From positions 340,803 to 404,802 of the forward strand of contig DASWXP010000002.1 in the NCBI GenBank assembly GCA_036405415.1: a stretch of 64,000 nucleotides of DNA, in the 5' to 3' direction. Shown piece by piece: positions 4,901 through 16,426 of the stretch. Both the position numbers and the translations under genes were made by a program. The stretch is from Minisyncoccota bacterium. Lineage in GTDB: Bacteria > Patescibacteriota > Minisyncoccia > Phycocordibacterales > Phycocordibacteraceae. The notes beneath the pieces are model-generated. The model was not told where the DNA came from. It made no database searches and saw nothing but the letters and a program-made list of their open reading frames with translations. Numbering within the stretch: position 1 is the first letter of the stretch; every line of letters begins with the position of its first letter.

Positions 4901-6541
4901 CTAGTTCGCAGGCGTCGTAGTGCCTGTGGTTTGCGCCGTCATCGTCGCAGCGACTGCTGCGCGCGTAAGCGGACCAAAGTATCCCGTTGACGGAACACCA
5001 TGTGTTGCCTGCCACTGCTTGAGCGCGGCCTGAGTCATCGGGCCGAACCATCCAGTTGGTGCCGGGATCGCGAGAAGACCAGCGTCGATAAGCATCTGCT
5101 GGAGCGCGTTTACATCAGCGCCTGTCTTGCCGTACCAGAGGTCAACCGTGAAGTTGTAGGTCGAGGCACCAAGGACCTGGCCCTGGCCAGGCGTAACGCT
5201 ATTTACCTGACCCGTGACGCTAGCGTTAGCATTTGCGTTCGAGTTGGTGTTTACCGTGCGGCGACTGGAGCCGCTCCGGCCAGAACTGCCACCATTGTTA
5301 TCATCTTCTGGCTGAGCAATAACCGGAGCGATCGTCGCCCAGTCATGCTGTTCAGAGAGAGTCGTGTTTTCTGCAACGATACCATTGACTGTGATGATAG
5401 CCTTTGCAGGTTTCTCTGCTGACTCCCACTCGCCGAGCGTCCAGTACTCTTCAGTTCCGTACGTAAGGTTCTGCGTGATGAACGGGGTGCTGAACTGCGT
5501 CGTGTTCTGTGCAAGCAGTTCGTTTAGCTTCGCGAGATTACCCTCATTGACGGCAAGGGTGTTTCCACTCGCGTCCTGAAGTTCAACCGTGAGTTCAGTA
5601 AACGTGCTGATGTTCGACACATTGAAGCCAACATTGATACCTGTGTAGTCGGTACCTGCGTGAGTGTTGAAGTTCTCTGCATTCACAGCAGGGATGATGG
5701 ACTCCCACGCATGCTGTTCAGAAAGCGTCGTATTCTCTACCTCGATACCGTTAACGGTAATAACTGCGGTCGAAGGCTTTGCATAGGACTTCCACTCGCC
5801 GAGCGTCCAGTACTCTTCCGTTCCGTAGGTAAGGTTCTGCGTGATGAACGGGGTGCTGAGCTGAGCTGCACCATTGACGAGAAGTGGGTTGAGCTTAGCA
5901 GCTACACCCGTGTTAGTAACGATTTCATCGCCATTAGCGTCCCTGAGCTCGACCGTAACATCGTCAAGGTTTGCCATGTTCGTAACCCGGAATCCGACGT
6001 TGATGCCCTTGTAGTCAGTACCAGAATGGGTGTTGAAATTCTCAGCAGTTACACCAGGAACAATGCTTTCCCAGGTCGGCCAACTACCACCTTCGTTAAA
6101 GCTTGAGTTAGTGGTTACGAGATCGCCGTCAGCAGTACTTACGGTAATAGTAACGCTTACAGGTCGAGTATCGACACTCCATGCTGCAGGAGCAGGATTC
6201 CAATAGAGCGTGTCACCTGCCTCAGTAAAGGAACCTTCCTTTATAACGAATGGGGTCGTGAGCTGATTGGTGCCTGGTGAATTAATGATGCCAAGCACAC
6301 CAGCATTTGCTGTTTTAGTTACGCTTGAACCGTCTGCACGGTTCAAGGTTACAGTTACCGCTGTTGCGTTTGTAATATCGGTTGTACGGAAACCGACACT
6401 TATGCCCTTGTAGCTTCCATCGACGGTCACGAACTCCTCAGCATCCACCGCTGGAGCGGCATAGACGCTTACAGGAGCTATGGCTGTGAGAAGCGCGAAC
6501 GCAGAAACCATGCTCGCGAGCTTAGTAAAGGTATTAGTCAT
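4901..6541 (-). CDS. secreted repeat protein with C-terminal peptidoglycan-binding (PG_binding_1-like) domain
   Basis: Start taken at the internal ATG 6541 (MTNTFTKLASMVSAFALLTAIAPVSVYA, a signal peptide). Three ~124-aa repeats (NFNTH.GTDY.GINVGF ... STPFITQNLTYGTEEYWTLGEW). C-terminus GADVNALQQMLIDAGLL...GWFGPMTQAALKQWQ resembles a PG-binding domain. Confidence 0.65.
   Translation of the reverse strand: MTNTFTKLASMVSAFALLTAIAPVSVYAAPAVDAEEFVTVDGSYKGISVGFRTTDITNATAVTVTLNRADGSSVTKTANAGVLGIINSPGTNQLTTPFVIKEGSFTEAGDTLYWNPAPAAWSVDTRPVSVTITVSTADGDLVTTNSSFNEGGSWPTWESIVPGVTAENFNTHSGTDYKGINVGFRVTNMANLDDVTVELRDANGDEIVTNTGVAAKLNPLLVNGAAQLSTPFITQNLTYGTEEYWTLGEWKSYAKPSTAVITVNGIEVENTTLSEQHAWESIIPAVNAENFNTHAGTDYTGINVGFNVSNISTFTELTVELQDASGNTLAVNEGNLAKLNELLAQNTTQFSTPFITQNLTYGTEEYWTLGEWESAEKPAKAIITVNGIVAENTTLSEQHDWATIAPVIAQPEDDNNGGSSGRSGSSRRTVNTNSNANANASVTGQVNSVTPGQGQVLGASTYNFTVDLWYGKTGADVNALQQMLIDAGLLAIPAPTGWFGPMTQAALKQWQATHGVPSTGYFGPLTRAAVAATMTAQTTGTTTPAN
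5330..6075. repeat. two ~370-bp tandem DNA repeats inside CDS 4901..6541
   Basis: Near-identical stretches, e.g. 5417-5500 versus 5787-5870 (ctcgccgagcgtccagtactcttc.gttccgta.gtaaggttctgcgtgatgaacggggtgctga), with a 370-bp period. Confidence 0.7.
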
Positions 6542-6751
6542 AAGTTTGCCTAATAGAAGTAATCGCCCGTTATTACCCCAGGTATGCCACTGCAACCTGC
6601 CCCAGTAATACCTTCACCCTATTCTTCTCAACTCATTTGTCAATAAAAGTTTCTGTTGTGACATGATAAAAAATTCATGTTTTCTTTATGTCTATTCTGA
6701 TCACTTTCAGAGAACGATGCCGCCAGTTTGCGCATGCGGTACCATAGGTCT

Positions 6752-7846
6752 ATGAAATCCTTTAGCGCACTTCTACTTGGAGCACTTCTATTCCTTCCCT
6801 TCACAGGATTTGCTCAAGGAGTAGAAGAGCAGCGTCTCTTGAAGGCGCGTGTGCTCGAAGCCTCCCCTACCACCGAACGGGTCGTGGAAGGTACGAGCAT
6901 CGTGACCGAGACCCAGACCCTCACTATCGAGGTGCTCGAGGGCGAAGACCGGGGACGGACCGCTACCTTCGAGAACGATTTCACGCAGCTTGAGGAAGGC
7001 GACATATTCTACGTACGCCATACGGTCGGCGGATTCGATCTTGAGACCTGGGCGGTCTCAGACCCGTATCGCCTCGACGTACTCATGTGGGTGGGCCTCG
7101 CGTTCCTTGCACTAGTGTTCCTCTTCGGAGGACTCCAGGGCATCCGCGGACTCGCTTCGCTTGCCGGAAGCCTCGTGCTTATCTTCTACCTCCTCCTGCC
7201 CGGCATCTATAGCGGCGGGTCTCCAATTCTCATATCACTTGGCGTGGCAGGACTCATCATCATCGTGGGTTCCTACGTGACGCACGGCGTAAACAAGACC
7301 ACGACCGCAGCCATGCTCGGCATGCTCGCGACAATCCTCGTCACGGGCCTTGCGACCTATCTCGTTATCGGCATGGCCTCGCTCTCGGGATTCACTTCCG
7401 AGGAGAACGCGTACCTTAACTTCGCGACCAGCGGCACGCTCGACATGGTTGGCCTCCTGTTCGGCGGCATCATGATCGGTCTTCTCGGCGTCCTCTATGA
7501 CAGTGCGATTGGCCAGGCGGTCGCGGTAGAAGAGCTGTATACCGCGGGCACGAATTACACCCGCAAGCAGGTATATCTGCGCGCGCTTCGGATCGGGCGC
7601 GAGCATATCGGCGCCTTGGTTAACACGCTCGCTATCGCATACGTAGGTGCGTCGCTCCCGCTCCTGCTTCTCCTGAAGCAGTCGACGGCGAGTCCGCTCT
7701 ATCTTCTCAATAGCGAGATCTTCGCCACGGAGATCATCCGCATTCTCATGGGAAGCATCGGTGTGATACTCGCCGTGCCGATCACGACGCTCATCGCCAC
7801 ATCGCTCCTCAAGGGAACAAAGCCTTCTGGGATCCACGCGCATTAG
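6752..7846 (+). CDS. YibE/F-like multi-pass membrane protein
   Basis: ORF 6728..7846. Preferred start is ATG 6752 (MKSFSALLLGALLFLPFTGFAQG, a signal-like peptide) with aggt 8 nt upstream. Soluble N-domain followed by about 6 Gly-rich TM helices, as in the YibE/F family. Confidence 0.5.
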   Translation: MKSFSALLLGALLFLPFTGFAQGVEEQRLLKARVLEASPTTERVVEGTSIVTETQTLTIEVLEGEDRGRTATFENDFTQLEEGDIFYVRHTVGGFDLETWAVSDPYRLDVLMWVGLAFLALVFLFGGLQGIRGLASLAGSLVLIFYLLLPGIYSGGSPILISLGVAGLIIIVGSYVTHGVNKTTTAAMLGMLATILVTGLATYLVIGMASLSGFTSEENAYLNFATSGTLDMVGLLFGGIMIGLLGVLYDSAIGQAVAVEELYTAGTNYTRKQVYLRALRIGREHIGALVNTLAIAYVGASLPLLLLLKQSTASPLYLLNSEIFATEIIRILMGSIGVILAVPITTLIATSLLKGTKPSGIHAH

Positions 7847-7889
7847 CGCTTGACTCTATCCTCTGCTGGTATAGAGTGCTGGTATTACT

Positions 7890-7908
7890 AATGCAAATTA
7901 ATTGCATT
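7890..7908. promoter_or_regulatory. 19-bp AT-rich imperfect palindrome AATGCAAATTAATTGCATT (candidate Fur-family operator)
   Basis: 8 of 9 symmetric pairs. It sits 6 bp upstream of the CDF transporter ATG, in an operon that ends with a Fur-family regulator gene. Confidence 0.45.
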
Positions 7909-7913
7909 TACCC

Positions 7914-8564
7914 ATGTCACTTACCACGTTTGCTAAGAATCATCCGCTCGCGATATACGGACTCGTCTGGCTATTGAGTCTCTTCATCGTGTCGCTCGAG
8001 CTCGTGGGCTCGGGCGTCTCCGGGAGTCAGGCGCTCCTTGCGGACGTAGGACATGTCGCAAGTGATACCCTGCTCGCGCTCGTCCCGCTCGCAGCGCTCC
8101 TCTTCGTGCGCCTCGGATGGAACTACCGCAAAGTCGCGTTCGTGAGCAGCCTCGCCGCGGTAGCGATTCTCCTGTGGGTTGGCGTGCACGTAGGCGGCGA
8201 AGCATGGGAAGCGCTCATGGGAGAGGAGCATCACGACCATGAAGTTAATGGCGTATTCCTCTTCCTATTCTCAGGCGTAGCAGCGATCGCGAACCTGATC
8301 CAGCACCGCCTTCTCTCGCGCATCGATCCTGAGCATCATCATGGCGCGCACCAGGGCCTCCATTTCCATGTACTCATGGACCTCGTGAAGAACGTGGCGC
8401 TCCCGGTGCTCGGCATCCTGATCGCGCTCGAGTTCCTCCCTGACCACGCGGACCTCTGGGCAGCGCTTGTTATCGGGGTGCTTCTCATCATCCGCGCCCT
8501 CATGCTTCTATATACGACCCTCTTCCAGGAGAAGCGCCTGCATGCAGGTCATGACCACGCCTAG
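7914..8564 (+). CDS. cation diffusion facilitator (CDF) family transporter, short form lacking the C-terminal cytoplasmic domain
   Basis: Six TM helices and His-rich loops (EEHHDHE, EHHHGAHQGLHFH, HAGHDHA). ATG at 7914; the TTG at 7902 would overlap the palindrome. Confidence 0.6.
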   Translation: MSLTTFAKNHPLAIYGLVWLLSLFIVSLELVGSGVSGSQALLADVGHVASDTLLALVPLAALLFVRLGWNYRKVAFVSSLAAVAILLWVGVHVGGEAWEALMGEEHHDHEVNGVFLFLFSGVAAIANLIQHRLLSRIDPEHHHGAHQGLHFHVLMDLVKNVALPVLGILIALEFLPDHADLWAALVIGVLLIIRALMLLYTTLFQEKRLHAGHDHA

Positions 8565-8967
8565 CCACGAGCAGCTACTTCGCGATGCGGGACTGCGTGC
8601 CACGCCTGGGCGCATAGCCTTGCTCCACGCGCTCGCAAAGGAACCGAAGCCCGTACCGGTTGAGAAGCTCGCCAAGTCTCTCAAGGGGAAGCTCAACCAG
8701 GTGACCTTGTACCGAGCACTCGAGGCATTCGAGAACGCGAACATCGTGACCCGCGCAGGGCTCGGGCACGAGCACGCGCACTATGAACTTCTCCTTGACC
8801 GCCCGCATCACCACCATGCTGTATGCCGTGCCTGCGGACATGTCGAGGATATCGAGATCCCGCATTCACCTTCTCCCGAGAAGGATGCCGAACGACGCGC
8901 CAAGGGATTCGCTTCCATAGACCGCTATTCCCTTGAGTTCTTCGGGACCTGCCGCTCGTGCGCTTAG
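8542..8967 (+). CDS. Fur family transcriptional regulator (Zur/Fur/PerR-like)
   Basis: Winged-helix N-terminus (GLRATPGRIALLHAL), a C-terminal HHHAVCRACG...C..C metal site, and a His-rich patch. Overlaps the end of the CDF gene by about 23 nt (operonic). Confidence 0.75.
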   Translation: MQVMTTPSHEQLLRDAGLRATPGRIALLHALAKEPKPVPVEKLAKSLKGKLNQVTLYRALEAFENANIVTRAGLGHEHAHYELLLDRPHHHHAVCRACGHVEDIEIPHSPSPEKDAERRAKGFASIDRYSLEFFGTCRSCA

Positions 8968-9081
8968 CGCTATACACACAGGCAGTAGCAGCACCTGGAA
9001 GCGGCACTTGCGGTGCTAGAATCTAGGTACAAATATGAATCCTTCATTCGGGACGCGCAGTGCTGTCCCGGCAGCTCGCGT

Positions 9082-9750
9082 ATGAGGATACTTGTTGTCG
9101 AAGACGAGGCGCGTATCTCCCGCTTCCTCAAGGAATCGCTCGAAGCAGAGTTCTTCGCGGTCGATGTCGCTGAGGACGGCGAGCAAGGCTCGTACTTCGC
9201 GCGCACCAACGAGTATGATCTCGTCGTGCTCGATAACATGCTCCCGAAGAAGGACGGGTTGCAGGTATGCAAGGAAATCCGCGCGAGCGGCAAGACCATG
9301 CCGATACTCGTGGTGTCCGTGAAGACCGGAACGTTCGATAAGGTGGACCTACTCGACGCAGGTGCGGACGATTATCTCGCCAAGCCTTTCGTGCTTGAGG
9401 AGCTCCTCGCAAGAGTGCGCGCGCTCATGCGGCGACCTACCGTCATCGAGAGTGACGTGCTGCGGGTCGAGGACATCGAGCTCGACGCGAAGGCAGGAAC
9501 CGTTCGCCGCAGCGACCGCGACATCACACTCACGCGCAAGGAATTCATGCTCCTGCAGTACCTCATGCGGAACGAGGGGACGGTGCTTTCCCGCGGCATG
9601 ATACTTGAGCACGTATGGGATATGAGCGTGGACATCTTCTCCAACACCATTGAGTCCCACATCCTTTCCCTCCGCAAGAAGCTCGGGGACACGAAGGACG
9701 ACCGTATCATCCAGACCATCTCAGGACGCGGATACCGCATGGGCGGATAG
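9082..9750 (+). CDS. response regulator transcription factor, OmpR/PhoB family
   Basis: Receiver domain MRILVVEDE...DLVVLDNMLP (phospho-acceptor Asp)...LAKPF, then winged-helix TLTRKEFMLLQYLMRNEGTVLSR...GYRM. Confidence 0.85.
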   Translation: MRILVVEDEARISRFLKESLEAEFFAVDVAEDGEQGSYFARTNEYDLVVLDNMLPKKDGLQVCKEIRASGKTMPILVVSVKTGTFDKVDLLDAGADDYLAKPFVLEELLARVRALMRRPTVIESDVLRVEDIELDAKAGTVRRSDRDITLTRKEFMLLQYLMRNEGTVLSRGMILEHVWDMSVDIFSNTIESHILSLRKKLGDTKDDRIIQTISGRGYRMGG

Positions 9751-9831
9751 CCGCTATCTTTTCTTCATATTTTCGTTATCGCTCTCTGAGAGAGTGTGTG
9801 CGGACTGGTCATTACATACAGGGAGACTCTG

Positions 9832-10503
9832 ATGACCGATGAGATTAGTGATACGAAAGCCGCATACGATCGCATGGGCGTTGCGTACGACGCCCTTTCA
9901 GAAGACTTCCATCAACAGGTCGCCTACCCCGCACTCCTTGCGCTTCTTGAGCGAGGGCTCGGCCCGCTACGAGCCCGAACGATACTGGACGTGGGCTGCG
10001 GTTCAGGGAGACTCGTGCGGCTTCTGCAGCAGAAAGGCGCAATCGCTTCTGGCATCGATCTTTCCGATGGCATGGCGTCGCGTGGCAGAGCAGCGGGAGT
10101 TCCGATAACTACCGGCTCGATGCTCGATCTTCCTTACGAGGACGAATCGTTCGATGCGGTGGTCTCGTACCACTCGTTCAACTATGTTCCGTTCCCGTAT
10201 CAGAGGCGCGCCATCGAAGAGCAGTCTCGAGTGCTCAAGCGCGGAGGAACATTGCTCCTCTCCCTCTTCCATACAGACACACCTGTACGGACTCCGCGCG
10301 CGGTTACGAGCGAAGGCGAGGAGCTCATACTGTATCTCAGAACACTCGATGAGATGCGTGACTTGGTGAGCTCGTGCCACTGCATCACACACCAAGCGCC
10401 GGTAGCGACGCCCGCGCAAGCAGCGCTCGTCCCTGAGAATGTGCGTGCGCTCGTGACCGAACGCCCCTACGCTCTGTTCATCGTCGCGCACCGCATTGTC
10501 TGA
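9832..10503 (+). CDS. class I SAM-dependent methyltransferase
   Basis: Motif I ILDVGCGSGRL, acidic motif II GIDLS, post-II DAVVS. A GGGAG Shine-Dalgarno precedes the ATG. Confidence 0.75.
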   Translation: MTDEISDTKAAYDRMGVAYDALSEDFHQQVAYPALLALLERGLGPLRARTILDVGCGSGRLVRLLQQKGAIASGIDLSDGMASRGRAAGVPITTGSMLDLPYEDESFDAVVSYHSFNYVPFPYQRRAIEEQSRVLKRGGTLLLSLFHTDTPVRTPRAVTSEGEELILYLRTLDEMRDLVSSCHCITHQAPVATPAQAALVPENVRALVTERPYALFIVAHRIV

Positions 10504-10510
10504 ACCCTTC

Positions 10511-10540
10511 GACATCCCGCTTCTGCGGGATGTCTTCTTA
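10511..10540 (+). terminator. intrinsic terminator gacatcccgc-ttct-gcgggatgtc followed by TTCTTAT
   Basis: Perfect 10-bp stem immediately after the methyltransferase stop, then a T-rich tract. Confidence 0.6.
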
Positions 10541-10645
10541 TGCGAAATTCATATTTCGATTACCTTTTCTTGATCGTGGCTCTACATCGGGACTCGTACC
10601 CTTCACTCTGGTTGTTCCTTACACGCATCAGAAAAGGAGTTTGCG

Positions 10646-11620
10646 ATGCACATGTTTACCGGCGTCTCGCTTCCAGAGAATCCAGGCCACGATACGGTCT
10701 ACACGCTTCTGCCGAGCGCTTCAGACGATGCCTACTACCGCGAGCGCACCAACCGGAATATCGGCTGGATAACGGAGACCGAGCAGCAAATCCTCCGGGA
10801 TTCTGTAATCGGCATCGCCGGCTGCGGCGGCATGGGAGGCCTGCTCGCTTCCCTATTCTGCCGGATGGGCATCGGCGAGGTCCGGGTTGCGGATTCTGAG
10901 GTCTTCGATCTCTCGAACGTGAATCGGCAGTTCGGCGCGAGCCGCACGAGCATCGGGCGCTCAAAAGCGCTCGAGACCGCACGGCTCACCCGCGCCATAT
11001 GTGACGACAATACGCTCATGGTGTTCCCGCAGGGCATCACCGAGGAGTCTGCCCAGGATTTCGCCCAGGGATGCCATATCATTCTCGACGAGATCGAATT
11101 CTGGGCAGTAGGGTCCCGCATCCTCCTGCATCAAGCCGCCCGTTCCTTTGGCGCGTCGCTTCTTAACTGCAATGCCGTCGGGTTCGGATCACGATTGTTC
11201 CGCTTCGATCCCGAAGGATTCACCATGGAGGAGCTTCTCGATCTCTCCTATGAGGACGCGAAGGTCCTGCAGGAACGCATTCAGTCCGGGACGGCCAGTA
11301 CCGAGGAAGTAACGCTCGTGATGGAGCGTATGTTCCGCGGCCTGGTGCCGGAACTGCCTGAATACGCTTCGGAAGACGCGGGCTACAGCACCGTCTCTGC
11401 GGTGCGAACACGGCTTCTGACCGAGCAACGTGCATCCATCGTCTCGTCAACGCCGCTCCTCGCCTCAGGATTCCTCGCGACGCATACCGTCTTCGAGCTC
11501 CTGAGTAAGAGTACTATCCCGCGGGTATACCAGCGACCGCCTGCGGCACCGGGCTACCTGATCATCGACGCGGGCTTCCACGAGGCCCGGGTCGTACACC
11601 GGAAAGGATCCGACCTATGA
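10646..11620 (+). CDS. ThiF/MoeB/E1-like adenylyltransferase (no CxxC zinc motifs)
   Basis: Rossmann motif GIAGCGGMGGLLA, SNVNRQ arginine finger, and the conserved Lys and Asp positions (GRSKALE, IILDEIEF). A ~150-aa C-terminal region has no Cys pairs. Shine-Dalgarno aaaaggag. Confidence 0.75.
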   Translation: MHMFTGVSLPENPGHDTVYTLLPSASDDAYYRERTNRNIGWITETEQQILRDSVIGIAGCGGMGGLLASLFCRMGIGEVRVADSEVFDLSNVNRQFGASRTSIGRSKALETARLTRAICDDNTLMVFPQGITEESAQDFAQGCHIILDEIEFWAVGSRILLHQAARSFGASLLNCNAVGFGSRLFRFDPEGFTMEELLDLSYEDAKVLQERIQSGTASTEEVTLVMERMFRGLVPELPEYASEDAGYSTVSAVRTRLLTEQRASIVSSTPLLASGFLATHTVFELLSKSTIPRVYQRPPAAPGYLIIDAGFHEARVVHRKGSDL

Positions 11621-12198
11621 CCGAAGGATTGAGCGTCTTCCTGGCAGAGCGCGAGGAAGACATAAGCGAGGTACACCGCCTCGTTGAGCGCATCTATCTG
11701 GCTTCGTACGGCACCGTGCCAAAGTCAGCCCATGCGTACGGCGCGGTTCGCCGCGGAGATGAGGTGGTTGCATGCCTCGGGTTCGACCACGCCGAGCCTG
11801 ATGGCAGATTCGCGATAGAGCGTATCTACTCGCTCGACCGCAGCACCTATCCGGTTCCTGTCGAGAGCAAGAGCACTGCCCAGTTCGGCCGCCTCGTCTC
11901 GAGCGAGCCGTGTCTCGGTAGGCTCGCAGTACATACCGGCATCTGGTTTGCGGTCAGGTCCGGAAAGCGGCTCGGCATTATCGAGCACACCGATACTATC
12001 CATCGCGTGGCGCTCGGATTCGGCCTTGTGCTCATCGATATACCTGTATGGGAAATCGACCTCAGCGAGACTCTTCCCGGAGACCGCGGTTACTACGAGA
12101 AGCGCGAGGGCAAACCGTACCTCATGGACCTCGAGCGATCCCTTGAGCGTACGGCTGCAAAGCTCCCATCGGACGTTCTCGCGCTTTTCGGGGAATGA
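11617..12198 (+). CDS. hypothetical protein, possible LuxI/FeeM/thermostable-hemolysin-like (GNAT-fold) acyltransferase
   Basis: Start ATGA-overlaps the ThiF stop (translational coupling). ~193 aa. Contains FGRLV and EPCLGRLAV blocks reminiscent of the E-x-S-R-L-A-V motif of autoinducer-synthase-like acyltransferases. The assignment is tentative. Confidence 0.4.
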   Translation: MTEGLSVFLAEREEDISEVHRLVERIYLASYGTVPKSAHAYGAVRRGDEVVACLGFDHAEPDGRFAIERIYSLDRSTYPVPVESKSTAQFGRLVSSEPCLGRLAVHTGIWFAVRSGKRLGIIEHTDTIHRVALGFGLVLIDIPVWEIDLSETLPGDRGYYEKREGKPYLMDLERSLERTAAKLPSDVLALFGE

Positions 12199-12266
12199 TG
12201 TTTTTTCACGATACAAGCTTCTGGTGCGGGCTGCCTCGCATGCCCGCACCTCTATATACTTAGACC

Positions 12267-14222
12267 ATGGCACCGAACCTCACGCCGGATATCCTGCTGC
12301 TTGCGATCGTCGCGGTCGCTAACGTCTCTATCGGGACGTATGTGTTTCTGCGCAAGCCTGAGGACCGAGCGCGACAGGCCTTCTTCCTCTTTGTTACCGG
12401 AGGCGCGCTCTGGGTAGGAGGGTTCGTGCTGCTTTCGCTCACACATAATTTCTCGTTCGACATCGTGACGAACTACGGAGGGCTGCTCCTCATCGCCGGC
12501 ACCCTCTGGTTCGCGCAGAACTTCCCGCGCCCCATCATGCTTCCGGTGCGGTCTTGGCTGCTCTATTTCCCGTTCCTAATAATCGCGGCCGGTGTCATAC
12601 CGCAGCAGCTCATCGTGCTTGGCATTGAGCCGCTTCCGGGTGGCGGCTTCGTGCCGATCGTGGGGCCGCTGTTGCCGCTCTGGAGCCTCATAGCGGTTAC
12701 CTATACGCTCGCTGCAATCTTAATCCTTATATATCGATTCCGGAGATCAACCGGACGCGAGCGCCTGCAGCTCGGATACGTATTCGCCGGCGTAAGCACG
12801 TTCGCTTTGTCTGCCGTCGCGTTCGATATGGTACTGCCCGTATTCGGCGTCACGGAACTCAAAGGTATCGGTCCCCTTACCTCCATCGTCTTCGTGGGAG
12901 CGACCGCCTATGCGATAGCACGGCATCAGCTCATGGATATCCGCATCGTCATACAGCGAGGGTTCACGTACAGCGTCTTGCTCGGACTCATCGTCATCTG
13001 CTACCTGAGCGTGCTCTCCGTACTCGGAACGCTCTTCCCGAATGAGGCGAGCGGCATATCTCTCGCCGCGTCACTCGTTACTATCACGCTCGGCATCATC
13101 GGCGTTCCGTACATCGAACGCTGGTTCAGGAAAGCTACGGATCGCATATTCTTCAAGGGAACGTATGAGTACGCCACCGCTCTTGAGACCCTATCTGCGG
13201 TACTGCATGCGAACGTGGAGCTTTCAGACCTCGTGCGTGAATCAGAGCAGGCGCTTGCGCGTATCCTGAGAGCGACATCCGTCCGCATCGCGCTTGGCCA
13301 AAGCGCTCACAAGAACGCAGTGCTTCTCGTTCCTATTGGCCTTGATGGCGAGCACATCGGCTGCATCCAGGTTGAAGCGAAGCGATCCGGCGACCCGTAT
13401 ACTCCGCAGGACCTCCAGCTCCTCAAGACATTCGCATACCAGGCAGCCACAGCGCTCTCGCGCGCGCAGCTGTACGCTGACGTGAAAGAGCACGCGAGGG
13501 ATCTTGAAGCTAAGGTTGCGGAACGCACCCGGGAACTCTCGCAGACGCAGGCACGCGAGCGGCAGATGCTGAATGATCTCTCGCATAACCTGCAGACCCC
13601 ACTCACCGTGCTCCAGACGAGACTTGATCGCTTGAAGCCGATCCTGAAGGACCAGGCCGAGGTACGCGCGCTCGAGCAATCCCTCGGGAGTTTCTCGGGA
13701 TTCGTCTACGAGCTGCTTTCACTTGCGCGCCTTGAAGGAGGCAGGCGCGTGGCGCGAATCCCGCTTGATCTGAGCGCGCTCGTGAGCGAGCTCGTTGACG
13801 AGATCAGCGTTATCGCGGAGAATCGCGGCATATGGGTTGAAAGCCGTATCGATGAGGGCTTGTATGTAAAGGGCGACGAGAGGCAGCTTCGCGAGGCGCT
13901 CATGAATCTGGCGAGCAATGCACTCAAATACCTGAAACCAGACGGAGAACGGAGCATAGCTTTTACGCTCATGCGAGAGAGCGATGCTGTCGTGCTTGAG
14001 ATACGCGACACAGGTACGGGCATTGCTCCTGAGGATCTGCCACGCATATTCGAGCGGTTCTATCGGGGAAGCCGCGTTCGGGACGACCTGCAGGGCACGG
14101 GCCTCGGGCTCGCGATCGTCAAGCGCATAGTCGAGCAACATAAAGGCACCGTCTCAGCGCAAAGTGTTCATAGTCAGGGTACGACCATGACGGTGCGCTT
14201 GCCGCTCCTTTCGGAGCACTAG
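12267..14222 (+). CDS. sensor histidine kinase with N-terminal ~8-helix integral-membrane sensor module
   Basis: N-terminal 330 aa are almost entirely TM helices. This is followed by a GAF-like linker, HisKA (LSHNLQTPLTVLQTRLDRL with the phospho-His) and HATPase_c (NLASNALKY, DTGTGI, GTGLGLAIV). Confidence 0.8.
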   Translation: MAPNLTPDILLLAIVAVANVSIGTYVFLRKPEDRARQAFFLFVTGGALWVGGFVLLSLTHNFSFDIVTNYGGLLLIAGTLWFAQNFPRPIMLPVRSWLLYFPFLIIAAGVIPQQLIVLGIEPLPGGGFVPIVGPLLPLWSLIAVTYTLAAILILIYRFRRSTGRERLQLGYVFAGVSTFALSAVAFDMVLPVFGVTELKGIGPLTSIVFVGATAYAIARHQLMDIRIVIQRGFTYSVLLGLIVICYLSVLSVLGTLFPNEASGISLAASLVTITLGIIGVPYIERWFRKATDRIFFKGTYEYATALETLSAVLHANVELSDLVRESEQALARILRATSVRIALGQSAHKNAVLLVPIGLDGEHIGCIQVEAKRSGDPYTPQDLQLLKTFAYQAATALSRAQLYADVKEHARDLEAKVAERTRELSQTQARERQMLNDLSHNLQTPLTVLQTRLDRLKPILKDQAEVRALEQSLGSFSGFVYELLSLARLEGGRRVARIPLDLSALVSELVDEISVIAENRGIWVESRIDEGLYVKGDERQLREALMNLASNALKYLKPDGERSIAFTLMRESDAVVLEIRDTGTGIAPEDLPRIFERFYRGSRVRDDLQGTGLGLAIVKRIVEQHKGTVSAQSVHSQGTTMTVRLPLLSEH

Positions 14223-14737: not shown

Positions 14738-16426
14738 CTACCACCAGATGCCTTGCATCCCGGCTATCTTCATATGCGTTCTCGTTACCGGACCGAGGTA
14801 GCCTAGAGCGGGCGCGATGCCGTGCGCCGCCTGGTACCCAGCGAGTGCAGCGCGCGTCAGTGCACCAAAGAGATCAGTCTCGCTCCCTGCAGAACCAGGG
14901 CCCGTATTCGCAACTACGAATCCATTTGCATTCAATAGCTTCTGGAGCGACCGCACGTCCTCTCCCGACATGCCTGTCACAAGATCCCGGACCGGCAGCG
15001 GTACCGTGCTGTCATGCTTGTTCACTTCCTCCTCCGGGAAGAGTCTCGGGTACTGGCGCATGAGCTCCTCTGCGCGTGCGGTATTGCCCATTCGGATAAG
15101 TGCTTTCACGCGGGACTGGATGCTGGTCCCGGTTCTCCGGCTTGACGTCTCCTCGACCTCAGTCGGAGCAGGTTCCGGCTCAGTAGATATGTACTGGAAG
15201 AGGCGCACGCCGGGCGTGCCGTTCTGTCCTACCGCGACTGTTATGCGCTCATCCTCGTAATAGAGATGCGGCTCGCCGAGAAAGTCCATGGCGAGGTCGA
15301 CTACCCCGCTCGTTCCGAAGCTCGATATCGGATCCCCATCCAGATCGTAGGCGCGAAGCACGCCCTGGTCTCCGGAGAGAATGCCTCCTACCACGAGCGC
15401 CCCATCGCCATCAGCAACCATACCCTGGATCTGGTCGTTCACCGCCGAATCGTCCACGGTTACGACGTCGAAATCTTCTCCATCCTCGTCGATTCGGACA
15501 TAGAACGCATGACGGTCGAAGTTATCGCTCACGTACCCGCCGAGCATGATGCTTCCGTCGCTCGCGATCGAGAGGTGCTCGCTGCGGGCATAATCCACGC
15601 CAGGAACGGCTTCGGTGAAGATACCGTTCGACGCGAAGCTCGTATCGAGATCGCCATCGGCTTCAACCGCATAGACTGCCACATCGTCTCCCACATACCC
15701 GCCAAGCAGGAAGCTGCCGTCCTCGCGCATGGCCATGTCGGTCAGGTTCGTGTTCGCGAACGTGGTGATACCGTTGATACCGAACGAAGGATCAAGGACT
15801 CCGGCTTGGGAATAGCGCGCAAGGAACGAGTCTCCCTGATCGTTATCCTCGCCGAGCACGATGATGCGGTTGTTGCTGTCGACCTCGACCGCAAGGAAGC
15901 TGTACTGGTCGCCGATCATGAGCGCGTACCCGTCATGGGTCGTTCCGCTCTCGCTGTAATGGTTGCCGAAGGAGGTATCAAGGACTCCTCCTGAGGACAA
16001 CCGCCCGATAAAGCCGCCATAGCTGTCTGTCGTATTGCCGTAGTTTCCGACGAAGAGGATCTGGCTCCCCTGGAGCGCGATATCTCGCACCACCGCTAGG
16101 CCATTGATATCGAACGTGAACGAGCCTCCGGTGCCGAACGAGGTATCGAGCGCTCCGGCTGCGGTAACGCGCACGATGCTCGACGGGTAGGGATCCGGAC
16201 CCACGAACGAGTTCGCGGAGAATATGATCTTCCCGTCCGGCTGCTTCAGGAGTCCCGTTACCTCAGGCTCGCTGTCAGCAAGCCCTACCTGGGTCGCGGT
16301 GAAGAACACCGAACCATCGGTATCAAAAGCGGTATCAAGCCCGCCATACGCGGCGTGAACGAAAGTAGACGGCACTGCGAGAAGCGATAGGAGCATCGCA
16401 GCAAAAAATGCGGTATTCCTGAGCAT
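14738..16426 (-). CDS. secreted delta-60-type repeat protein with C-terminal peptidoglycan-binding domain
   Basis: Signal peptide MLRNTAFFAAMLLSLLAVPSTFVHA. About 8 repeats each containing D(T/P)SFG..G. C-terminal GEDVRSLQKLLNANGF...LFGALTRAALAGYQAAHGI resembles PG_binding_1. Confidence 0.6.
   Translation of the reverse strand: MLRNTAFFAAMLLSLLAVPSTFVHAAYGGLDTAFDTDGSVFFTATQVGLADSEPEVTGLLKQPDGKIIFSANSFVGPDPYPSSIVRVTAAGALDTSFGTGGSFTFDINGLAVVRDIALQGSQILFVGNYGNTTDSYGGFIGRLSSGGVLDTSFGNHYSESGTTHDGYALMIGDQYSFLAVEVDSNNRIIVLGEDNDQGDSFLARYSQAGVLDPSFGINGITTFANTNLTDMAMREDGSFLLGGYVGDDVAVYAVEADGDLDTSFASNGIFTEAVPGVDYARSEHLSIASDGSIMLGGYVSDNFDRHAFYVRIDEDGEDFDVVTVDDSAVNDQIQGMVADGDGALVVGGILSGDQGVLRAYDLDGDPISSFGTSGVVDLAMDFLGEPHLYYEDERITVAVGQNGTPGVRLFQYISTEPEPAPTEVEETSSRRTGTSIQSRVKALIRMGNTARAEELMRQYPRLFPEEEVNKHDSTVPLPVRDLVTGMSGEDVRSLQKLLNANGFVVANTGPGSAGSETDLFGALTRAALAGYQAAHGIAPALGYLGPVTRTHMKIAGMQGIWW

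Follow-up and report, generated by a model that had tools for sequence, protein, structure and literature searches.

Positions 9035-14222 of a 64-kb window of patescibacterial DNA (the window is the whole stretch that was analysed) hold a cassette in which genes of biosynthetic appearance lie between a response regulator and a membrane-bound histidine kinase, which raises the question of what this cassette makes and what the kinase perceives. We propose an autoinducer-like circuit in which an N-acyl-amino-acid-derived signal would be made by a ThiF-like enzyme and an acyltransferase and read by a 7TM-GAF kinase; we regard the case for it as evenly balanced. Checking of open reading frames (ORFs) together with Pfam and NCBIfam searches identified five genes, all in the same direction:

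9082..9750, plus strand: OmpR/PhoB-type response regulator, 222 amino acids (aa) (Pfam Response_reg, E = 2.6e-27; Trans_reg_C, E = 1.2e-25)
9832..10503, plus strand (ORF opens at 9796): class I S-adenosylmethionine (SAM)-dependent methyltransferase, 223 aa from the ATG (Methyltransf_11, E = 2.6e-22)
10646..11620, plus strand: ThiF-family ATP-dependent adenylating enzyme, 324 aa, predicted carboxylate-activating cyclase (PF00899, E = 7e-27)
11617..12198, plus strand: LuxI/FeeM-fold acyltransferase of the T_hemolysin-like branch, 193 aa, predicted N-acyl amino acid synthase (NAS)
12267..14222, plus strand: sensor histidine kinase, 651 aa (HisKA_7TM, GAF, HisKA and HATPase_c)

A first-pass annotation, made from the letters alone, had placed the same five genes here, and the domain matches agree with it on the OmpR-type regulator, the class I methyltransferase and the ThiF-type enzyme devoid of the Cys-x-x-Cys motif, which is absent from the full sequence. 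The translational coupling that it had described is also present, as the start codon of the 193-aa protein lies in an ATGA overlap with the ThiF stop codon, and the two blocks that it had picked out in this protein, FGRLV and EPCLGRLAV, correspond to residues 90-94 and 97-105. Its interpretation as a whole is partly supported. It had overlooked the nearest characterised precedent, the pairing of an NAS with a ThiF-like cyclase in acyl-oxazolone pathways.

Conservation of the gene order

Scanning one genome per GTDB species with the ThiF alignment gave 80 loci, in which ORFs were called and searched with profiles of the window proteins. Synteny was counted in the 48 closest loci, all from different GTDB species, several of the incomplete ones ending at contig edges. 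Nearly all of these 48 are labelled as Patescibacteria, Paceibacterota, Nomura-, Azam-, Taylor-, Adler- or Doudnabacteria, Minisyncoccia or, in automated submissions, 'Saccharibacteria'. The ThiF-like gene is followed by the acyltransferase gene and then by the gene of a kinase with a homologous membrane sensor in 36 of the 48, and an OmpR-type regulator gene stands directly upstream of ThiF, or of a methyltransferase-ThiF pair, as well in 27 of the 48. ThiF and acyltransferase genes are adjacent in about 40 loci. The acyltransferase slot is mostly occupied by the 193-aa type; a LuxI/FeeM-like protein holds it in L016, L034, L041 and L042, and a third, divergent GNAT-like ORF in L030. Because the order is kept in a close relative (L001), in two loci whose 193-aa protein is 53-56 % identical (L003 and L004) and in the 36 loci just mentioned, the arrangement is far beyond chance. 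The conserved core consists of four genes, encoding the OmpR-type regulator, the ThiF-like enzyme, the acyltransferase and the 7TM-GAF histidine kinase.

The co-occurrence of all five genes in related genomes, on which the first-pass annotation had staked its proposal, thus holds for this core but not for the methyltransferase, which was found in six of the loci examined (the window, L001, L003, L005, L031 and L045). As it occurs in these six only, stands after the acyltransferase gene in L031 and is separated from ThiF by a terminator-like hairpin in the window, the methyltransferase gene is a recurrent accessory tailoring gene outside the core. Of the three biosynthetic genes said to be bracketed by the two-component system, the ThiF/acyltransferase pair is therefore the part that stands. 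The methyltransferase reached no NCBIfam equivalog, the best model being the DVU_1556 family with 71 bits against a cut-off of 155.

The acyltransferase

The 193-aa protein has an identical entry in NCBI, labelled as a metagenome-assembled genome (MAG) of Candidatus Paceibacterota. Searched alone, it gave 15.3 bits with T_hemolysin (PF12261; E = 0.018), below the cut-off of 27, zero matches in NCBIfam and no match among PDB sequences. A word-index search returned six homologues only, and the AlphaFold2 model built on six sequences was poor (pLDDT 60). An exhaustive profile search raised the family to 161 cluster representatives. T_hemolysin was matched by 43 of 81 family members (best E = 1.4e-8) and FeeM by 16 of the 81, so the guess of the first-pass annotation that this protein has a fold like that of LuxI, FeeM and thermostable hemolysin was right. 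We also compared the family by hhalign with the LuxI/FeeM-like proteins (PF13444/PF00765) that hold the same gene slot elsewhere, and the two are homologous (96.6 %, E = 4.8e-10), again placing the protein in the LuxI/FeeM-type GNAT fold. The likeness to thermostable hemolysin and to the FeeM NAS (PF21926) is one of family affinity and common fold, although the window protein itself remains under the Pfam threshold.

The residues conserved in LuxI are D46/D49, R70 and the E101/R104 pair of the ExSR motif. The LuxI-like slot-mates keep the corresponding D44, D47, R66, E95 and R98. In the 193-aa family the DxxD segment is a deletion and the subsequent Arg aligns to Gly or Phe; of the LuxI-type positions only R92 (75/81) and E68 (62/81) are retained. 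Autoind_synth (PF00765) matched neither the window protein (E up to 1) nor any of the 81 family members (E up to 0.01). By these comparisons the 193-aa protein is outside the LuxI family. We predict that it would N-acylate an amino acid from acyl carrier protein (ACP)- or CoA-bound acyl groups. The literature searched yielded no biochemical activity for PF12261, nothing relevant linking thermostable hemolysin with ThiF, and nothing relevant for PDB id 9EGB.

The ThiF-like enzyme and its fusions

The ThiF-like protein scores below all equivalog cut-offs for ThiF and MoeB (adenyl_thiF 60.7 bits against 275; MoeB models 27-46 against 266-633). Its best NCBIfam models are uncharacterised: PRK08223 'hypothetical' on top (1.1e-41, under its cut-off), then PRK14851 and PRK14852. 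The nucleotide- and Mg-binding residues, namely the GxGxxG motif (G59-G64), N91, R94, Q95, K107 and D148, are invariant in 32 homologues, and for this reason the protein should be an active adenylating enzyme. When the family profile was compared with PDB, the top match was the cyclodehydratase TcdA (E = 6.6e-15, residues ~52-183), and the putative catalytic Asp D148 aligns with the Asp of the TcdA motif 'IDAID'. The single sequence had weak PDB matches to ThiF (1e-10) and, over residues 46-108 of the nucleotide-binding segment, to MccB (~6e-5).

Ten of the best 120 ThiF homologues are 492-527 aa long. Six of these were read and all are ThiF-acyltransferase fusions, in which ThiF forms the N-terminal and the acyltransferase the C-terminal part; half of the ten carry a precomputed GNAT-type Pfam domain. 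The C-terminal half is of the 193-aa type in P0037 and P0080 and of the LuxI/FeeM/Acetyltransf_5 type in P0035, P0040, P0073 and P0077. Two more fusions were found in cassette loci (L018 and L022). Because the two are fused in several genomes, we consider that ThiF and acyltransferase act in one pathway, and a functional tie of the 193-aa protein to ThiF is supported by the fusions and by the strict adjacency.

Relationship to characterised pathways

Pathways that combine an acyltransferase of this fold with a ThiF homologue are known. In the TyzACB pathway of M. tuberculosis, an acyltransferase of the FeeM/LuxI fold makes N-acyl-tyrosine, which the ThiF homologue TyzB cyclises with ATP to an oxazolone (PMC10404671). 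In TrzAS of the same species the ThiF domain cyclises N-acyl-tryptophan, after which a fused flavin oxidase desaturates the product, and the Asp-to-Ala mutation D217A abolishes cyclisation (PMC12856293). OxzAB of Pseudoalteromonas rubra is the founding acyl-oxazolone example, as cited in both papers (PMC10404671, PMC12856293), and stieleriacine-type clusters of Stieleria comprise an NAS, a methyltransferase, a ThiF and a nitroreductase (PMC12479983).

The cassette resembles OxzAB, TyzACB and TrzAS in having a LuxI/FeeM-fold synthase beside a ThiF-family ATP-dependent enzyme: the two are adjacent with an ATGA overlap or fused, and the ThiF-like protein has an intact ATP site and the candidate catalytic Asp. 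With the Stieleria clusters it shares the accessory methyltransferase. It differs in several respects. A nitroreductase-type flavin desaturase, present in all characterised pathways, is neither adjacent to nor fused with ThiF in the cassette neighbourhoods, no genome-wide search for it having been made. Moreover, the acyltransferase belongs to the T_hemolysin-like branch, the fusion partner of the cassette ThiF, in some genomes, is the acyltransferase and not an oxidase, and the cassette pair sits inside a two-component system. Judged from sequence, the acyl-oxazolone pathways are the closest characterised chemistry; the likeness is one of family, and orthology to TyzB, OxzB or TrzS is at most a possibility. 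TcdA, the tRNA threonylcarbamoyladenosine dehydratase, shares the ThiF fold and performs an ATP-driven cyclodehydration of the N-carbamoyl-threonine carboxylate of t6A, but it acts on a tRNA nucleoside and lacks an acyltransferase partner, and the similarity is confined to the Rossmann-type core.

Regarding signalling, LuxM/LuxN, CqsA/CqsS (LqsA/LqsS) and PhcB/PhcS-PhcR all have a synthase gene beside that of a kinase with a multi-helix membrane sensor and no large periplasmic domain, plus a response regulator, and in the Phc system a methyltransferase, PhcB, is involved, as may be the case here. The cassette shows the same linkage of synthase and kinase in 36 of the 48 loci, 27 of them with the regulator, so the first-pass comparison with LuxM/LuxN holds for the genomic logic. 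It goes no further, as the 193-aa protein does not carry the LuxI signature, and both the enzymes and the sensor domain of the cassette are unrelated to those of LuxM/LuxN, CqsA/CqsS and PhcB/PhcS.

The first-pass annotation had also called the system uncharacterised for this lineage, which is mostly true, but Table S4 of Bernard et al. 2020 (mSystems, PMC7567580) lists 18 LuxI homologues of the Candidate Phyla Radiation (CPR) that adjoin a sensory kinase, as candidates for quorum sensing. The product is read there as an acyl-homoserine lactone (AHL), and ThiF is unmentioned in the text and in the supplementary text searched, part of which was truncated (PMC7567580). The pairs in that table are probably the same cassette in those genomes where the acyltransferase is recognisably LuxI-like. 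Since it has no PF00765 match and is not a recognisable LuxI homologue, the T_hemolysin-like variant of the window would probably escape a LuxI-based survey. Literature searches for Patescibacteria quorum sensing with a histidine kinase and an acyltransferase, or for Patescibacteria N-acyl amino acids, found nothing relevant, and those for Patescibacteria quorum sensing and two-component systems gave unrelated community surveys only.

The sensor kinase

Hydropathy indicates about 8-9 hydrophobic or transmembrane segments between residues ~9 and 280 of the kinase, and Pfam places the GAF domain at ~319-399. HisKA_7TM is matched with 29.9 bits against a cut-off of 28.6, together with GAF, HisKA and HATPase_c. 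The multi-helix membrane module of the first-pass annotation is thus real, but its length is ~285 residues and not ~330, because the hydrophobic segments stop near residue 280 and GAF begins at about 319. A word-index search with residues 1-330 was saturated on hydrophobic words and gave two matches; the sole usable independent homologue of the sensor region, P0274, adjoins a ThiF gene and a 185-aa ORF. In the literature searched, HisKA_7TM came up in two surveys of archaeal two-component systems only. In L015 (1930-5354), two tandem kinases with the same 7TM sensor type follow one ThiF-acyltransferase pair, which may be a receptor duplication.

Transcription signals

OmpR/PhoB-family regulators usually bind direct repeats placed one helical turn apart. 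Across 30 loci, direct repeats at 11- and 22-bp spacing, with a unit near CTTTAYA, were found upstream of ThiF. They are enriched over shuffled sequences (z of 7.5 and 8.7, respectively), 24 of 31 upstream sequences contribute to the signal, and their density per kb is 16.5 (11 bp) and 19.0 (22 bp), whereas 130 control intergenic regions taken from these loci gave 7.0 and 4.0; the repeats are thus specific to the stretch before ThiF. Four further elements were recognised in the window:

9764..9780, plus strand: 17-nt box TTCATATTTTCGTTATC, candidate regulator-binding site upstream of the methyltransferase gene (pattern scan)
10511..10534, plus strand: terminator-like hairpin with a 10-bp stem (7 GC), followed by TTCTTAT (consensus scan; -20.5 kcal/mol, z -6.35)
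10548..10564, plus strand: 17-nt box TTCATATTTCGATTACC, candidate regulator-binding site upstream of the ThiF operon (pattern scan)
12223..12250, plus strand: stable GC-rich hairpin between the acyltransferase stop and the kinase start (-23 kcal/mol, z -4.65)

The box pattern TTCATATTTNNNTTAYC has exactly two sites in the 64 kb, before the methyltransferase and ThiF genes, at a chance expectation of 0.00, and L001 likewise has this box upstream of its methyltransferase gene. Taken together, the repeats and the box suggest control by the cognate regulator, whose binding to them is a prediction from sequence. Half of the 17-nt box also recurs, as TTCATATTTGTACC on the minus strand, ahead of the regulator gene in the gap that separates it from a Fur-like gene (8990-9082), and might be an autoregulatory site of the regulator gene itself.

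L003 has a hairpin of different sequence in the same place between its methyltransferase and ThiF genes. The second hairpin is identical in L001 and is replaced in L003 by one of different sequence at the same position; it may be an attenuator or an mRNA-stability element that sets the ratio of synthase to kinase expression. The layout is consistent with three transcription units, namely the regulator gene, the methyltransferase gene and ThiF-acyltransferase-(hairpin)-kinase, of which the last two would be under the regulator.

The proposed circuit

Judging from its fold and family, the 193-aa acyltransferase would first transfer a fatty acyl group from its thioester to an amino acid (or a related amine), so that an N-acyl amino acid is formed. 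The ThiF-like enzyme would then adenylate the free carboxylate with ATP and promote an intramolecular cyclodehydration to an oxazolone-type or other cyclic or activated product; we infer this step because of the precedents of TyzB, TrzS, OxzB and TcdA and because of the ThiF-acyltransferase fusions. Where present, the methyltransferase would tailor the product. The 7TM module of the kinase might perceive the lipophilic product inside the membrane, and the kinase would then phosphorylate the OmpR-type regulator, as the strict synteny suggests. Finally, the regulator would bind the 11-bp-spaced direct repeats observed before the ThiF-acyltransferase-kinase operon and, in the window, act on the methyltransferase gene too, closing a positive feedback loop and with it an autoinducer (quorum-sensing-like) circuit. 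The synthesis and cyclisation steps draw on fold, fusions and published precedent, the sensing and feedback steps on synteny and promoter repeats only.

Several points weigh against the circuit. Synteny is the sole link between the product and its presumed sensing by the kinase, and two-component systems beside biosynthetic genes can sense other cues. The window's own promoter has degenerate 11-bp repeats in which no 6-mer, with up to one mismatch, recurs at that spacing. The window ThiF is not demonstrably nearer to the Rv1355c (TrzS) family model (E = 1.1e-14) than to ThiF proper (1.2e-16). The acyltransferase is without the DxxD/Arg cluster of LuxI, and the Glu of ExSR is Gln in 58 of the 81 family members. 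No nitroreductase-type flavin desaturase was seen among the families recurring within ~8-11 kb of 42 loci or in the Pfam-annotated neighbourhoods, a genome-wide search not having been made; since an oxazolone would be labile in saturated form, the actual product may be another compound. Many Patescibacteria are without fatty-acid synthesis, which puts the acyl donor in doubt.

Alternative explanations

The main alternative keeps the same enzyme pair and takes its product for an effector, for instance an antibiotic, a lipoamino acid with membrane-active or haemolysin-like properties, or a lipid of the envelope that serves the episymbiotic interaction with a host. The two-component system would then trigger its production on another cue (host contact, envelope stress or a host lipid). 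The 193-aa family falls in the 'thermostable hemolysin' branch of Pfam, an ABC exporter is near the cassette in 11 loci, kinase and product are connected by synteny only, and N-acyl amino acids have been described as antibiotics and membrane constituents (PMC10404671, discussion). However, the kinase gene lies in the same operon, downstream of the synthase genes, and its sensor module is conserved specifically with them. The apparently autoregulatory repeats upstream complete a layout that is typical of autoinduction loops, though compatible with an effector too. We judge an effector rather unlikely.

An improbable alternative reverses the order of the two steps: ThiF would adenylate a free carboxylic acid, perhaps a host-derived fatty acid that the cell has scavenged, and the GNAT-fold enzyme would acylate an amine with the acyl-adenylate in place of acyl-ACP or acyl-CoA. 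Patescibacteria commonly have no ACP or fatty-acid synthase, and this order would make up for that lack; it would also suit the order of the fusions and the departure of the acyltransferase from LuxI at residues conserved there. Against this, the literature offered no precedent for a ThiF-family enzyme that feeds a LuxI/FeeM-fold enzyme, related proteobacterial clusters bring their own acyl-CoA ligase or ACP, and the characterised NAS-ThiF pairs all acylate first and cyclise second (PMC10404671, PMC12856293).

ThiF-family enzymes classically adenylate protein C-termini, so the target of the pair could be a protein or peptide that is activated at its C-terminus and transferred in ubiquitin-like fashion, or else the kinase or regulator itself. 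Weak generic matches to E1-E2 models of cyclic-oligonucleotide-based anti-phage signalling systems (CBASS) in PADLOC point the same way, but they cover the Rossmann segment only, and the core includes no E2 or JAB partner and no conserved small ubiquitin-like or precursor ORF. The stretches upstream of ThiF, 92-517 nt long in 31 loci (12 of them at most 128 nt) and each including ~30-40 nt of coding sequence, are occupied by the promoter repeats. We consider this very improbable. The only small ORF called upstream of ThiF, one of 35 aa in L085/L086 (4300-4407) that overlaps it by 4 nt, was considered as a precursor peptide; it covers the ribosome-binding site, has no counterpart in the window and is probably spurious. 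Anti-phage defence was likewise rejected, as PADLOC gave generic domain-level matches only.

It is scarcely credible that the locus encodes a true LuxI-type AHL synthase with a LuxN-like receptor kinase. Synthase and membrane kinase are indeed neighbours, but the 193-aa protein has no Autoind_synth match, lacks the DxxD segment, does not keep the Arg that follows it and has Gln in place of the ExSR Glu; moreover, LuxI lactonises by means of SAM and needs no ThiF, which is here invariably attached. We dismiss a microcin-C-type peptidyl-nucleotide pathway (MccB/MccD/MccE-like), which the first-pass annotation had offered on account of the ThiF, methyltransferase and GNAT genes, and canonical ThiS/MoaD sulfur-carrier activation: the ThiF fold and the weak PDB similarities would allow either, but no small ORF is conserved upstream of ThiF across loci, in line with its own failure to find an Asn-terminated precursor, and many loci have no space for one, the similarity to MccB (of MccA-F) includes no N-terminal peptide clamp and is not MccB-specific, the GNAT is of the LuxI/FeeM type, the methyltransferase is dispensable in most loci, and the equivalog scores far below cut-off, the missing CxxC and the lack of a conserved partner ORF of ThiS/MoaD size speak against a canonical MoeB/ThiF.

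Distribution, neighbouring genes and related clusters

Two short contigs, L020 and L045, are labelled 'Gammaproteobacteria' and 'archaeon' in automated MAG submissions and bear a typical patescibacterial cassette, in L045 with the methyltransferase; they are probably mis-binned. The ThiF proteins of L032 (Legionella norrlandica), L040, L035/L036 (Rickettsiales MAGs) and L028 are proteobacterial and 44-49 % identical to that of the window, which makes them as close to it as many patescibacterial ones, and in L032 and L040 ThiF is paired with a 193-aa-type acyltransferase without a kinase. This identity and pairing suggest horizontal transfer between Patescibacteria and host-associated Proteobacteria.

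The families that recur within ~8-11 kb of 42 cassettes are an ABC exporter (11), RadC (10) and an unknown 171-aa protein (9), none of them consistent. Upstream of the cassette in the window (6728-8967) lie genes for a YibE_F-like membrane protein, a cation-efflux (CDF) protein and a Fur-family regulator, recognised through synteny with L001, for which Pfam annotation is available. The three resemble a metal-homeostasis block, and only the closest relative shares this block beside its cassette. On either side of the cassette, the minus strand encodes a large protein predicted to be secreted (4901-6595 and 14738-16426). Judging from the Pfam matches of their syntenic counterparts in L001, both appear to carry a peptidoglycan-binding module (PG_binding_1) at the C-terminus; one contains three internal ~100-aa repeats, and the other gives a weak DUF5122 beta-propeller-like match.

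Outside the Patescibacteria, several ThiF relatives have other partners. Plasmid pRetIE4771a of Rhizobium etli (L088) combines ThiF with a FeeM-like GNAT, a diaminobutyrate transaminase (EctB-like), a transporter, a long-chain acyl-CoA ligase and an alpha/beta hydrolase, and in Pseudomonas syringae (L080) ThiF has the first three of these partners. These two clusters look like an uncharacterised route to a cyclised N-acyl-diaminobutyrate, possibly a lactam or a 'lipo-ectoine'-like compound. A Xanthobacteraceae MAG has a ThiF relative with an ACP and a FabH-like ORF (read from the sequence, no HMM check). Plasmid p28NP2 of Salmonella enterica (L087) encodes, in this order, a GNAT, a ThiF, a methyltransferase of the leucine carboxyl methyltransferase family and a protein of the phosphoenolpyruvate mutase/isocitrate lyase family, the first three being the same enzyme classes as the trio of the window; the window methyltransferase was rejected as an orthologue of the Salmonella enzyme, as the two have no similarity.

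More distant ThiF relatives (~31-33 % identity) adjoin other N-acylating enzymes: a split aspartate/ornithine carbamoyltransferase and an MFS pump on 8-10 kb plasmids of Staphylococcus epidermidis (L089), a formyltransferase-like gene and an MFS pump on a Bacillus cereus plasmid (L090), and carB, which ThiF directly follows, in Amycolatopsis (L057). The actinomycete relatives L053-L077 (30-35 % identity) have no adjacent acyltransferase detectable with the window profiles. An N-acylating enzyme plus ThiF may be a general biosynthetic motif.

Implications

The analysis corrects current annotations, in which such genes are called 'molybdopterin/thiamine biosynthesis adenylyltransferase' and 'hypothetical protein'. 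The cassette joins two known kinds of system, biosynthesis by an NAS with a ThiF cyclase and signalling by a synthase with a membrane kinase, and was partly glimpsed in the 2020 survey. We put forward more tentatively the broader idea that Patescibacteria own a widespread autoinducer system with a new class of signal. Two separate or fused enzymes would make this signal from an N-acyl amino acid, which the ThiF-type enzyme would cyclise or activate and which some lineages would methylate, and a dedicated 7TM-GAF kinase would read it. If true, this would give these ultra-small episymbionts their first defined circuit of intrinsic cell-cell signalling, and would constitute an ATP-driven, SAM-independent alternative to AHL-like signal synthesis. 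Patescibacteria have minimal genomes and are mostly host-attached, so a four-gene circuit kept in many lineages likely matters to the way they live. Should the product prove to be a signal, the cassette would offer a clonable entry to density or host sensing in organisms that are almost wholly uncultured.

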